Positions 2,059 to 60,769 of a stretch of DNA of 64,000 nt are shown here, one piece after another. The stretch's first letter is position 1. The number at the start of each line of letters is the position of its first letter. Both the position numbers and the translations under genes were made by a program. The notes beneath the pieces were generated by a model that made no database searches, was not told where the DNA came from, and saw nothing but the letters and a program-made list of their open reading frames with translations. The stretch is from Eledone cirrhosa (taxonomy: Eukaryota): contig OZ024757.1 of NCBI GenBank assembly GCA_964016885.1, positions 22,382,001 through 22,446,000 of the forward strand, read 5' to 3'.

Positions 2059-2252
2059 AATCCCAGGTTCAATCAGGGGTAATTACAGTAAGTAAGGTAC
2101 TCAATACATTAGTAGAATGTATACAACTTTAATATATAAATGGCTTCTACCTTGAACCATTTCATTCGAAGGAAACATCAGTTTTCCAAAAGGTTTCCTT
2201 CGAATGAAACAGTTCTAGTCCTGTAGAAGCCATTTCTATATTAAATTTGTTA
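2059..2252. mobile_element. Inverted-arm HHR/pLTR-like fragment
   Basis: Inverted arms at ~2138-2176 and ~2193-2236 carry the GAAACAG-ttctagtc-CTGTA half of an HHR. Conserved GTACTCAATAC motif at 2097. Confidence 0.6.
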
Positions 2253-2274
2253 TATATATATATATATATATACG

Positions 2275-2449
2275 TTATTCCAGGTTGAATCGGAGGTAAC
2301 CACAGTAAGTAAGGTACTCAATACATTGCAGAGTATAAAAGTTTTAATATAGATGAGATTCTAAAGGACTAGAACTGTTTCATTCTTTAGAAATCATCAA
2401 TGATTTCTAAAGAATGAAACAGTTCTAGTCCTGTAGAATCTCATCTATA
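2275..2449. mobile_element. Inverted-arm HHR/pLTR-like fragment (second copy)
   Basis: Near-perfect ~50-bp arms at ~2347-2397 and 2401-2449. GTACTCAATACATTGCAGAGT at 2314. Flanked by (TA)n. Confidence 0.6.
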
Positions 2450-2486
2450 TATATATATATATATATATATATATATATAAATAACA

Positions 2487-2730
2487 ATGATGCGCATGGA
2501 GGATGACCGATCGGTGAAGAAGTACCAGGAAGTCCCAGTGGAGGGAAGACGCAGTAGAGGTAGACCACAAAAAACATGGGTGGAGGTGGTGAGAGCAGAC
2601 CTCAGATCGCTGAAACTCACGGAGCAGATGACAAAGGGCCGTGACGAGTGGAGAGATGCTGTGCTGAATAGGACCCATCCAACCCTTGCAAGCAGGGATA
2701 AGTGGACGTAAAATGATGATGATGATGATG
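2487..2730 (+). mobile_element. RTE-clade LINE 3' fragment
   Basis: Encodes VEGRRSRGRPQKTWVEVVRADL...DRDEWR-like RTE C-terminus followed by an (ATG)n tail; closely similar to 61560-61800. Confidence 0.9.
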
Positions 2731-2995
2731 GGCAGTGAAGTGCAGAGTGTCAGAGAAAATGCTTTGCAGCATTTAGTTACGGCCTTTTACTTTCTGAGTT
2801 CAGATCCCATTGAAATCAACTTTGCTTTCAATCCATTCAGGGTCCATAAAGCAAAGAAGTCACATACTGTGGTTGATATAATCGAATTTCCTCTCTCCAC
2901 AAATTGTTAGCCATGCAACTAAATAAGAAATCCTTATATAAACCATATTTATCTATCTACCTATATCATCATCATTTAACATCCACTTTCTCTCC

Positions 2996-3525
2996 TATAT
3001 ATATATATGTATATATATATATATATATATATATGTATATATATATATGTATATATGTATATATATATATATATATATGTATATATATATATATATATAT
3101 ATATATATATGTATATATATATATATATATGTATATATATATGTATATATATATATATATATATATATATATATATATATATATATATATATATATATAT
3201 GTATATATATATATATATATATATATATATATATATATATATGTATATATATATATATGTATGTATATATATATATATATATGTATATATATATATATAT
3301 ATATATGTATATATATATGTATATATATATATATATATATATATATGTATATATATATATATATATATATATGTATATATATATATATATATATATGTAT
3401 ATATATATATATATATGTATATATATATATATGTATATATATATATATATATATATATGTATATATATATATATATATGTATATATATATATATATATAT
3501 GTATATATATATATATATATATATA
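2996..3525. repeat. (TA)n microsatellite with periodic TG interruptions
   Basis: Seen directly; source of the YIYI ORFs. Confidence 0.95.
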
Positions 3526-3671
3526 TTGTATGAACATATGAATCATCTCTCTCTGTCTTGCATATATCTATATATATATATATGCAAAAAGTAAACAGAA
3601 ACAACAAAGTAAACAACACAGTAGACTAAAGAAATACGCTAGTTTAATGCTTGATATAGTTCAAACAGAGA

Positions 3672-3705
3672 CTTAACATTTCGGACACTTGTCCTTCATC
3701 AGAAG
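3672..3705 (-). ncRNA. Minimal hammerhead ribozyme motif
   Basis: Minus strand reads CTT-CTGATGA-A-GGAC-aagt-GTCC-GAAA-TGT-TA-AG. Core and stem II are intact; stems I and III are weak. Confidence 0.55.
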
Positions 3706-56881: not shown

Positions 56882-57125
56882 GGGTGGTAGATTAGCAGTA
56901 TCGGCAGAGCATCAGACAATATGTTTTATGGCATAGGGTTATGCTCCTTTTTGATCCGAGTTCAAATCCTGCCGAGGTTAGCTTTGCCTTTCATCCTTAC
57001 GAGGTCGATAAAATAAGGTACTAGTACTGGGGTCGATAAAATAAAGTACTAGCACTGGGGTCGATTTAATCAACTTTCTCTTCCCCAAAAATTGCAGGCC
57101 TTGTGCCTAAAGTAGAAAATTATTA
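56882..57125 (+). mobile_element. Meta-domain SINE (older subfamily)
   Basis: Head, B box and Meta block with an internal duplication. Confidence 0.8.
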
Positions 57126-57160
57126 TTATTATATATATATATATATATATATATATATAT

Positions 57161-57580
57161 AATTGGTGTTGGATGCTTAAAGCGTCCGTATGCGGTATGT
57201 CGTTTGAGCACTCAATGCTCTTACAGAGCAGAGTATAATATCACATAAGAAACGGAGAATCAGTGGTGCTATGAATAAGATTTATTAGACATTACAATCG
57301 TTTCTCTGGCGACCAGCTCAAGGCACGATCGATGCAATGATCGAACCTGACTCTGAAAATCGCAAGGTCCTCAAATACGTCTTGATTCTACGAGTGCTCA
57401 AACGGCCTACCGCATACGGACGCTTTAAGCATCCAACACCAATTATATATATATATAATAAGTTGAGTCAGGTTTGATCATTGCATCGATCGTGCCTTCA
57501 GCTGGTTGCCAGAGAAACGATTGTAATGTCTAATAAATCTTATTCGTAGCACCACTGATACTCCGTTTCTTATGTGATAT
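57161..57580. mobile_element. HHR-like element with interleaved inverted repeats A-B-A'-B'
   Basis: A 57161-57213, A' 57392-57444; B 57238-57353, B' 57465-57580. Minus-strand HHR-like fold at 57288-57381. Confidence 0.7.
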
Positions 57581-57699
57581 ATATATATATATATATATAT
57601 ATATATATATATATATATATATATATATATATATATATATATGTGGTCTTTGTATTTTATACTAGAATTTCTTTCAACACTGACGTATGTATGAGTATA

Positions 57700-58224
57700 T
57701 CTAAACTATAATAAAGTAAGGAGTGCCGGACTGCGTCCTGAATATATTTTTTTATCCCCTTAGTAAAATAAGTTGGTTTACTTTGAATAAATAATTGTTT
57801 CTATTTTAGGCACAAGGCCAGCAATTACCAAGTACATTACTGGTACTTTGTTTTATCGATCCCGTAAGGATGAAAGGCAAAGTTAACCTCGGCAGGATTT
57901 GAACTCAGATCGTAAAGGGACGTAACTATGTTGGAAAACATGTCCGACCCTCTACCAATACTGCCAATTCACCGCCCTGAATTACTTTGAATAAATAATT
58001 GTTTCTACTTTAGGCACAAGGCCAGCAATTACCCAGTGCATTACTGGTACTTTATTTTATCGACCCCGTAAGGATGAAAGGCAAAGTCAACCTCGGCGGG
58101 ATTTGAATAAATAATGAATATTACATAATTTATGTACTCAATTTTGTAACTCTTGATTATATATAAATAATTTTATTGCTTATTTCATGATTCACTTCTT
58201 TTAAAATTTTCAAATGTCAATACT
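57700..58224 (+). mobile_element. Second (3'-truncated) Helitron copy with Meta-SINE at the same site
   Basis: Homologous to 51869-52268; here the SINE is present as a full plus partial tandem. Confidence 0.7.
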
Positions 58225-58436
58225 ATGCCACAAAGCATGGTGCTCAATGCTATACTGATACTGCCAATCTGACAACATGTTATATAGTGAGGGACTAAGA
58301 TTGCTGCACTTAATAAAAGGCAGGATGGTCAGAGATGGAATGATTCTGATCCTAGGAGTGCTCAATCAAAGCTTGTATGTGATGGTATGGTGTTTGTAGA
58401 CACTTGTCATGATTCTAATCAGATCCTAATATCTTC

Positions 58437-58960
58437 AACCTTTTGATGTCAACCCACCTAAAACCATCTCTAGTTCTCTGAAACAAAACCATTTTAAATG
58501 ATTCCTAGTAACCCTTTAGTGTTCAAAGCGGGCAAAACCGGCCAGGATTCTCTACCTCTTTCTGTTGAAACTGGCTCTAACTGGTCACTCAAACTGATAT
58601 TAAGGTATTGTTCTCAAAATAAATACTTTCGAAATCTCATAGATTCGATATTATGTGAGATAATTATGTGAGGTAAAGCATTTACCATGAAAATATAATA
58701 GTATTTATAGAGTAATGTGAATGTTATGTGAGATATTATGTGAGGTAAAGCCTTTACCATGAAAATATGATAGTATATATAAAATAATGTGAATGCTAAA
58801 GGGTTAAATTAAAATCTTCCATAATTTTATATGAGAACAATATGTTAAGTTACTGTTTCAGTATTGAAATAATTAATAATTTTAGAAAATCCCTCAAAAT
58901 TCTTCATTAATTAATTGAAATAGAGTATATTCATTAGAAATATGGTCACAAAATGGTTAA
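58437..58960 (+). mobile_element. piggyBac-like family 2 MITE with nested family 1 MITE (58512-58803)
   Basis: Outer AACCTTTTG...CAAAATGGTTAA; inner CCCTTTAG...CTAAAGGG|TTAA. Confidence 0.7.
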
Positions 58961-60769
58961 TACTTAAAAGAAAGAATGGTTAAAGAATACATTACTAAAT
59001 GTCAGATATAATGAAATAGATGATTTAGAATTTGTAATTTAAATATCTTCTTTGCCAACTTATTCCTGAAATGGTTGTTGGGGGCAGAATCCCCAAACAC
59101 TCCTTCCAGTAAGTTCTGTCAGAAGCAATCATCTCCAATTGATCTGACCCAATCCCTGAGTGAGACCAGCTGAGCCCATGGATGTTATCTTAGTAATTAA
59201 TTAATAATTTTAGTAAATCCCACAAAATTCTTAATTAATTGATTGAAATTGAGTGTATTTCATTAACAGATATGATCACCGATCGGGGGTAACCAGGATA
59301 GGCCACACTAGATAGCATGTTGTGTAATCTGTAATATTTACCTGGGTGTCAATGGGGGAGAGAGATGGGGGAGAGGGAGAGAGAAAAAGAGAGACAGATA
59401 TATATATATATATATAGAGAGAGAGAAAGAGAGAAAGGAGGAGAAAGAAAGAGAAAGAGGGAGGGCAGAGAAATGGAGAAAAAGAGGGTGAGCAAAGAAA
59501 GAGAGAACAATGAAAAGAGGGTGAGCAAAGAAAGAGAGAAGAACAATGAAAAGAGGGAAAAACAAAAAAAAGAGAGGGCAACAAAGAAATAGAAGAGGAG
59601 AGAGAAAGAGAGGGAGAGAAAGAAAGAGAGAAACAAAGAAAGAGAGGAGGAGAAAAAGAGAAAGGCACAAAGAAAGAAGAGGAGAAAGGAACAAAGAAAG
59701 AGATGAGAAAGAAAGAGAGAGAGAAAGAAACAAAGAAAGAGAGGGAGAAACAAAGAAAGAAAGAGAGGGAGAAACAAAGAAAAAAAGAGAGGGAGAAACA
59801 AAGAAAGAAAGAGAGGGAGAAACAAAGAAAGAAAGAGAGGGAGAAAGAAAGAGAGGAACAATGAAAGAGAGATTTAAAAAATGATAGAATAGAAAGTTAC
59901 CATTTTCAAAGATTGCTGCACAGATAGAAATAAATACTTAGACTAAAGAAATCTTAGAGGTGGTAGAATAATTATATTTTGGCACATAGAACTAAATGAC
60001 TGTCTTGAAAGCTCTTATTCTCTCTATGTGTGTGTGTGTATATATATATATATATATATACATACATACATACATATAGTTTTTTCGTTTTCTATGACAT
60101 TGGTTCCATGCCAAGTTTACAGTTGCTTGTCTCCTCTACAATCAATAAATCCTCAAACACACCATTGTGTGTGAAAAAAAAAAAATGGTGGGGGGGGGGG
60201 GGAGACAAAGTGAACAAATAAATAGACAAAGAAAGAAACAACAAACAAATAGATAAATAAATAAATAAGATGTGTAAAAAAAAAAAAAAAGGACGTCCAA
60301 TGCTCGTTTCTAATATTTGCAGCGAGGCCAAGAACATGTAATGTCTGTGAATGGATTAAATGATCAAAGATGCCAATATGATGTGTAAAGCTCTCATCTT
60401 TTCAAGAGTGTTCGTTTAATGTTGTTCAGTTATTATTTTGGTTTAGCTCTGGTTTGTCAGTCTGAGTATGTGTATGTATGATCGTAGGTAGATATAGCTA
60501 CATGCCCACACAAATATATGTGCACACACACACACACAAATATATGTGTACACACACACACACACACACACATTTATATACACACACACACACACATATA
60601 TATATATACACATACACACATTCATATATATATATATATAATGAAGGAGTTGTGGTAAGGAACCAGATGGACCATAACGCACCAGAGTACTCAATACTTA
60701 TGGTAGTAGAGTGGGTAATATATATATATATATATATATATATACATACATATTCACACACAGACACAC

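Follow-up and report, generated by a model that had tools for sequence, protein, structure and literature searches.

Twin bulged hairpins beside the ends of Hydra-clade Penelope-like elements in Eledone cirrhosa: a putative RNA signal for internal initiation of reverse transcription

A recurrent hairpin and the elements that carry it

The stretch of DNA considered here (the window) comprises 64,000 nucleotides (nt) of Eledone cirrhosa (GenBank assembly GCA_964016885.1, contig OZ024757.1, positions 22,382,001 to 22,446,000, forward strand). It is AT-rich, microsatellite-dense animal DNA with no long coding frame outside its repeats, and it contains numerous copies of a small hairpin carried by Penelope-like retroelements (Table 1). 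A first-pass annotation, made from the letters alone, had listed this hairpin as a bipartite motif at 11 positions, and all of these are confirmed: five match a strict pattern (42713+, 46851+, 60712-, 57234- and 2334-) and ten are matched when 1+2 mismatches are allowed, the eleventh (27242-) being a hairpin with a 1-nt bulge. In 40 block shuffles of the window there was no strict match and a mean of 0.8 loose ones. A covariance model, whose training set included 8 of the 11 sites, recovers all of them, the 43.2 kb site weakly (E 1.3), and five further copies were absent from the earlier list (63194+, 32561-, 6577-, 6412- and 5986-). Throughout the 3.0-Gb assembly the exact pattern has 73,824 matches, evenly divided between the strands, versus none for the reversed-pattern control; a generalised pattern gives 86,748 versus 926. 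At 30 loci taken in genome order the motif lies within short elements inserted in (TA)n, 25-50 nt from their 3' end, and an inverted 5' arm is frequent.

The nature of these elements is best seen in the family that we call A, two copies of which have pieces of a reverse transcriptase (RT) and a GIY-YIG endonuclease upstream of the motif. A protein search retrieved many intact 784-amino-acid (aa) family A frames (717 aa from the Met), and in a tandem array with a 3,542-bp unit every unit has one motif, some 140 nt ahead of the ATG. The protein comes from one open reading frame (ORF), RT followed by a C-terminal GIY-YIG endonuclease; its predicted fold (pLDDT 91) has TERT as its best match and it shares 38% identity with a coral protein along 625 aa, and a Pfam search of it matched no family. 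The residues RWK, DKT, CxCX5C, CxxC and CxH are marks of the Hydra clade (PMC8557442). The N-terminal RWK position reads RWR (K to R) in families A, B and G, DKT replaces DKG in A and B, and in family A the linker CxCX5C is CNCPDRSIC, CxxC is CNLC and CxH is CKH; a CCHH motif is not evident in its endonuclease on inspection by eye, with no alignment to the published figure. The 3,542-bp unit exceeds the usual Hydra-clade length of <3 kb, owing to a long untranslated region (UTR), and this length is given in PMC8557442 only as a tendency.

Other families lead to the same kind of protein. Copies that read through the usual end connect family B (the 2.3k group) to a Hydra-type ORF 52% identical to that of family A over 494 aa, and family G (57.2k group) to one with 36-43% identity; longer copies do so for family K (27.2k; 30-35%), and family I is tied to such an ORF by read-through or longer copies. 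For family C (43.2k) our searches found no ORF link, one read-through (L386) with a decayed hairpin 2 and an ATG being suggestive only. A canonical type I hammerhead ribozyme core is predicted in families B, C, G and K, and the core predicted in family A is the U3-A8 variant (TTGANAA, with position 7 differing between copies) reported in PMC4209133, which overturned our view of this family as hammerhead-free. Insertion in (TA)n is seen across the hairpin-bearing elements, and the general Penelope traits are present: a motif-bearing tandem array of the kind that forms pseudo-LTRs (LTR, long terminal repeat), mirrored 5'-truncated insertions and a one-sided tail. Judged by protein motifs, identity, predicted hammerheads and TA targeting, the motif-bearing families are homologous Hydra-clade Penelope-like elements, matching that clade (Craig et al. 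2021, PMC8557442) in protein motifs, hammerheads and (TA)n targeting. The hosts of the motif had been taken for otherwise unrelated hammerhead families, and this is not so: the 11 sites fall into about seven families with tails shared within groups (2.1k/2.3k/46.8k; 7.2k/60.7k; 19.8k/57.2k), members of a single Penelope clade whose proteins are 30-52% identical to that of family A. A Helentron/DINE-1 end motif was also considered, and dropped once read-through copies yielded Penelope ORFs.

Two properties of individual families deserve mention. Family A is very abundant and apparently active, and its tandem arrays (L063-L064, G000:C1:91471001-91491000) contain intact 784-aa frames of which many are identical. 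In family B over 1 kb of TG/TA microsatellite-like sequence belongs to the 3' UTR itself (L150, L151 and L156), so that the element spreads the repeat type that it targets.

Hairpin structure, element ends and hammerheads

The two halves of the motif are the two strands of a bulged hairpin, RCTC-stem-loop-stem-UH-GAGY-RC, in which ACTC pairs with GAGT, at least the next 3 bases pair across the loop, and a 2-nt bulge lies between; the pairing is obtained only in this 2-nt bulge register. Moreover, the pseudo-LTR has two such hairpins, following one consensus, and the order within the element is hammerhead - hairpin 1 - hairpin 2 - ATG. Hairpin 1, the motif originally noticed, lies in the tail, between two end sites. 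Hairpin 2 sits 70-89 nt after it in families A, H and I, is present in G, and in B is a reduced 4-bp stem, GCAC/GTGC; it occurs only in read-through copies and is normally not inserted.

The ends of the copies stand at nearly constant distances from these hairpins. In family A, 93 ends terminate in TA (26 read-through ends and 21 lacking TA are not part of this count); 49 of them stand 6 nt before hairpin 2 (site 2) and 30 stand 8 nt before hairpin 1 (site 1). In family B, 41 of 66 such ends lie 8 nt before hairpin 2. Each end falls on a 2-4 nt TA-like stretch common to element and target, and the tail is about 55-125 nt long. Head-to-head pairs usually use one site each (32 of 42), with two using site 1 twice and eight having one end off-site. 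A reference-free survey of the window and of 800 kb of genome (80 stretches of 10 kb at even spacing) gave 81 candidate mirrored insertions, 29 of which have the hairpin directly after the mirror point, at a distance of 6-9 nt in 23 cases; the corresponding controls gave 1, 0 and 0.25, and one of the 29 looks spurious. Among the remaining 52 candidates are hairpins that have decayed or have a long stem, elements of other types, and false mirrors.

The arrangement extends beyond this genome. A 62-protein profile retrieved 76 marine metagenome loci, known from contigs alone, with proteins 35-43% identical to that of family A. In 44 of them 150 nt or more precede the start, and among these a strict descriptor finds two hairpins in 29, one in 13 and none in 2; it gives 17 hits in 160 kb of the loci's ORFs and a single hit on the opposite strand (10.9 kb). 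Hairpin 1 follows the hammerhead GAAA by 39-67 nt, hairpin 2 comes 55-92 nt further on, and then the ATG; the 3' copies pass into TA ahead of either hairpin 1 or hairpin 2 (e.g. L248, L257, L279, L308). The covariance model R2 matches 31 of 43 loci outside its training, with 59 of 64 matches on the sense strand. Among six published Hydra consensi (PMC8557442), examined by eye, the hairpin is clear in three (Hydra-2_Amil, Hydra-2_Ajap and, twice, Hydra-1_Ajap), imperfect in two (Hydra-1_Amil, Hydra-1_Crog) and not visible in Hydra-1_Obim. One perfect look-alike occurs in the Naiad_Mmer consensus in the PMC8557442 supplement, in the 3' UTR about 150 nt past the stop, far from the end and without a twin, and is not seen in the neighbouring Naiad consensus; this single case has not led us to regard the hairpin as common to Naiads.

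Since alignments picked by pairing make covariation partly circular (in such a 51-row alignment pair 1 is G-C in 40, A-U in 8 and U-A in 3), the unselected test employed 59 hairpins from 32 metagenome loci chosen by their sequence boxes only, pairing ignored, with 10 loci removed by eye as near-duplicates and 5,000 shuffles as control. Inner pairs 5, 6 and 7 are kept in 54, 43 and 39 of the 59, against shuffle means of 43.1, 25.4 and 22.5 (maxima 50, 38 and 36), and include 1, 3 and 5 G-U pairs, respectively; pair 1 is kept in 51, against a mean of 45.3. The bulge reads TT in 37, TC in 15 and TA in 7 (TG was found in two E. cirrhosa families), and a TA stands at -8, -7 or -6 before the hairpin in 18, 16 and 26 of the 59, compared with 2-10 elsewhere upstream. 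The bulge plus the preceding base, R-U-H, resembles the hammerhead cleavage triplet in all families, with stems flanking it where hammerhead stems III and I would sit, so that the hairpin looks rather like a hammerhead minus its core and stem II.

As to the hammerheads themselves, an arm had been reported upstream at six sites, and a 3' half (GAAAC or decayed) is indeed found there on the same strand at all six, 44-79 nt off, as well as at 2.3k and 7.2k; none was seen at 42.7k, 42.8k and 60.7k. The fixed distance, however, is to the insertion ends (6-8 nt) and not to the hammerhead. The expected enrichment holds in one direction: in the 800 kb, 17 of 50 hairpin matches have a 3' half within 90 nt upstream, against a background of 7.8%, with 5 having one on the opposite strand and none having one downstream, but most complete hammerheads of this genome lack the hairpin, a strict descriptor finding it within 100 nt of 1 of 43. 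This reverse link is weak because many hammerheads lie in other repeats or in an arm that stops before hairpin 1. A TA run follows 10-90 nt downstream in 43 of the 50 (background 16%), and the motif is linked to element ends more than to hammerheads. Our first hammerhead/hairpin descriptor was abandoned as noisy (96 hairpins versus 51 and 73 in shuffles) and blind to truncated hammerheads. Short copies have arms that cluster 35-45 nt 5' of the cleavage site (at -60 to -65 in family A and at -70 in family B), which implies that the template was uncut there; uncleaved RNA is likewise the template of PAc, the Anolis Poseidon element (PMC11167929).

Some carriers encode no protein at all. Family H, a tandem unit of roughly 540 bp, has a hammerhead and the two hairpins, ends at the same two sites in three insertions, and gave no protein match in two loci. 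The protein-free 591-bp unit of the window has both hairpins and ends at matching offsets, its inverted arm stopping 8 nt before hairpin 1 and its direct arm in a TA tract about 6-12 nt before the expected start of hairpin 2; at one locus a 195-bp derivative of family B retains hairpins and ends. By their sequence organisation, a tandem non-coding unit with a predicted type I hammerhead, family H and the 591-bp unit fit the description of non-LTR retrozymes. There are also 467-bp tandem hammerhead units (L073:5830-7750, L085, L138) with no hairpin within 100 nt of the cleavage site. Finally, one CCHH-type family of the same genome, labelled Neptune-like by us from its cysteine linker, is TA-targeted, has a hammerhead and shows two ends 57-66 nt apart, and in this one family the hairpin is present in 0 of 29 copies, the 14 model matches in its loci all coming from neighbouring Hydra-type copies. 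The hairpin is thus not required for two-site ends in all Penelope elements. A read-through copy of this family (L388, G000:C2:206055001-206062000) has a different small hairpin 2-5 nt after each end, one with a UUCG loop, and a possible explanation is that these are the analogue of the signal in another clade.

Table 1. Hairpin copies of the window and the insertions in which they lie
Feature	Position	Strand	Basis	Remarks
Hairpin 1, decayed copy, family B group	2097..2118	-	pattern + covariance model
Hairpin 1, family B	2314..2334	-	pattern + covariance model	family B reads into Hydra-clade ORF
Mirrored 5'-truncated family B insertion in (TA)n	2273..2445	-		hammerhead core starting 2400
Protein-free tandem element, 591-bp unit	5833..6770	-		both hairpins; U3-A8 hammerhead near 6149
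Hairpin 2 of 591-bp unit	6394..6412	-	read from sequence	sole hairpin 2 recognised in window
Hairpin 1, long inner stem	6515..6577	-		first pair A-C mismatch; second copy 5924-5986
Hairpin 1, family A	7230..7255	-		decayed hammerhead 3' half at about 7298
Hairpin 1, family G group	19775..19801	-		inside mirrored insertion 19722-20091
Hairpin 1, 1-nt bulge, family K	27221..27242	-		mirrored insertion 27165-27400; hammerhead core 27314
Hairpin 1	32534..32561	-		absent from earlier list; insertion 32474-32733
Hairpin 1, old copy	42713..42734	+		no hammerhead seen
Hairpin 1, old copy	42827..42848	-		tail to tail with 42713 copy
Hairpin 1, decayed, family C	43214..43235	-		hammerhead core 43313
Hairpin 1, family B group	46851..46872	+		mirrored insertion 46716-46912
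Hairpin 1, family G	57208..57234	-		insertion 57162-57443; hammerhead core 57374, GAAAC 57304
Hairpin 1, family A	60687..60712	-		tail-only copy 60641-60718
Hairpin 1, family I group	63194..63215	+		absent from earlier list; tail-only copy 63185-63276

The two tail-only copies of Table 1 run from site 1 to site 2 and are possibly remnants left after loss of the palindromic arms. The family G hammerhead at 57304-57374 is of type I, has a stem II region some 65 nt long, and escapes the usual descriptors. More hammerhead-like cores, of other families, lie at 37, 4541, 32628, 3702 (minus) and 62419 (minus), only the one near 32.6 kb being tied to a hairpin. A 48-bp minisatellite (14502-17675, 66 copies, several frames open) is unrelated to the hairpin.

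A putative initiation signal and its alternatives

What could a twin hairpin at a fixed distance from both ends be doing? The first-pass annotation had proposed a cis-acting signal conserved across families, and as a signal for the element's protein this is the best reading, with the corrections that it is not a linear bipartite sequence and that a second copy lies further 3'. From the sequences, we consider that the hairpins probably serve as an RNA signal positioning the internal initiation of reverse transcription, each a putative protein-binding site. The element's protein would bind the RNA hairpin and its GIY-YIG domain would nick the (TA)n target DNA; the ...TA 3' end released by the nick would then anneal to the UA stretch, 2-4 nt long, immediately 5' of the hairpin, and would prime the complementary DNA (cDNA) there. 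Priming at site 2 would copy hairpin 1 and priming at site 1 would not, and the two cDNAs, one per side of the break and most of them stopping inside the uncleaved hammerhead, would be joined head to head. In vitro, a Poseidon-clade protein does initiate at two positions inside the RNA, and these correspond to the ends of the tail (PMC11167929).

Several observations weigh against this proposal. In family B, site 1 is scattered from -3 to -20 and hairpin 2 is reduced to that 4-bp stem; many of the end-mapping loci were chosen by tail sequence, inflating the site-2 counts; and the CCHH-type family has its two-site ends without the hairpin. As regards the structure, pairs 2-4 are invariant and uninformative, the shuffle controls ignore relatedness, and several hairpins are weak, another structure being the minimum-energy fold in their surroundings. 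The UA at -8 to -6 would also fit an endonuclease that prefers TA, and the start described in PMC11167929 falls in a stem loop rich in AC rather than 5' of a hairpin.

The hairpin may, for instance, act as DNA, with the GIY-YIG endonuclease recognising it and cutting at TA 6-8 nt upstream, thereby resolving an intermediate and making the tail; the cDNA or donor locus would then extend past the hairpins. The tail is attributed to endonuclease-mediated resolution in PMC8557442, the D. virilis endonuclease required the tail for recognition (as recounted in PMC11167929), the conserved TA agrees with the (TA)n target, and the fixed end distances fit equally. The stem G-U pairs and the sense-strand asymmetry, however, suit RNA, and both Poseidon tail ends are initiation sites in vitro (PMC11167929), so that we rate this DNA model as unlikely, though it is the leading alternative. 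A second alternative, which seems to us improbable, is that only hairpin 2 sets a start and that the first cDNA folds back and copies itself, the second strand being halted by hairpin 1 (or its complement) 8 nt short and joining the other target end by TA microhomology. The lesser sharpness of site 1 in family B would suit such a scheme, as would most of the arm lengths: in 89 rows (two loci counted twice) the arms are within 15 nt of each other in 54 and the tailed arm is the longer in 19. But in the other 16 the tail-less arm is longer by at least 15 nt, with an excess of up to 227 nt, and hence not simply copied from the tailed arm, even if later deletion could also produce such differences, which counts against our own proposal. 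Fold-back is also hard to reconcile with the site-1 arm of family H that covers one whole extra unit, with the two pairs ending at site 1 on both sides, and with the single consensus of the hairpins, which suits one shared role. That hairpin 2 ends 13-40 nt before the ATG in 28 of 29 two-hairpin loci, and that four stem letters per side are nearly invariant, like a protein-binding box, could instead point to a transcription or translation signal of the pseudo-LTR (promoter boxes or ribosome loading), the ends adjoining it merely via TA-rich unpaired spots. We find this highly improbable: protein-free repeats retain both hairpins, the family A ATG is about 63 nt away, and the family A ends are fixed to the base.

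The initiation signal lends itself to a bolder version, which we put forward tentatively and with more doubt than confidence, in which a protein dimer docks both hairpins and primes both strands of one (TA)n break, the UA plus hairpin acting as a portable template tag. The PAc protein is predicted as a dimer (PMC11167929).

Relation to known systems and significance

The literature already covers Hydra-clade elements with their hammerheads, TA targeting and tails, as well as initiation at two sites (PMC8557442, PMC4209133, PMC11167929). In the text of PMC8557442 the hammerhead is the only RNA element named, and the tails given there are 30-40 nt long, against the longer ones here. PAc (Frangieh et al. 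2024, PMC11167929) likewise has two internal starts bounding its tail and an AT-rich target; its starts, however, are within the AC-rich stem loop of the ORF, whereas the sites here precede the ATG, each with its own 3' hairpin. A protein-binding motif is hypothesised there in the first 172 nt of the ORF, that text identifying no recognition element, and the extracted letters of the PAc RNA in its Fig. S1B contain no such hairpin. Metazoan non-LTR retrozymes, tandem non-coding hammerhead units, have been proposed to be moved by Penelope elements (Cervera and de la Pena 2020, PMC7229834; Li et al. 2026, 10.64898/2026.07.22.740005); the texts of these two papers name no cis signal, and family H and the 591-bp unit carry both hairpins. 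The first-pass annotation knew of no named feature matching the motif, and neither do we: an Rfam search gave only microsatellite-driven microRNA matches below threshold and no family for the hairpin, and the pair is not described in the literature that we found, a scope that leaves aside repeat databases (Repbase, Dfam), subscription journals, figure images and some supplements.

Small structured RNAs that recruit their own RT, and that are kept by non-coding parasites, are familiar from stringent long interspersed elements (LINEs) and their short counterparts (SINEs) and from the R2 3' UTR. The LINE/SINE stem-loop is single, at the RNA's 3' end, 5' of the start, and copied into each insert. 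The Penelope hairpins are unlike it, being two, internal, each 3' of a proposed start and not copied from that start; relative to the LINE and R2 recognition elements it is this position, and the doubling, that set them apart. The template-flanking elements of telomerase RNA and the epsilon of hepatitis B, a bulged stem-loop, are structured RNAs, bound by a related or an analogous RT, that fix an internal template position. They have no sequence or family match to the hairpin (none in Rfam), and epsilon primes in its bulge, whereas Penelope priming is proposed to be from target DNA outside the hairpin.

Penelope-like elements are the sister group of telomerase RTs, and on how they recognise their RNA and choose internal starts the one in vitro study went no further than to hypothesise a binding motif. 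A hairpin of 20-30 nt, conserved across animal phyla at a fixed distance to both ends, offers an account of the tail and of the mirrored insertions, a usable marker for roughly 90,000 short copies in the E. cirrhosa genome, and a way to tell from sequence on which Penelope clade a given retrozyme depends. If the dimer version were true, the head-to-head, one-tailed shape of the insertions would be the direct product of a twin RNA signal with its sites 55-125 nt apart, and a UA, 6-8 nt and a 20-nt bulged hairpin would suffice to set the point at which copying begins and to make any RNA, retrozymes included, a template.

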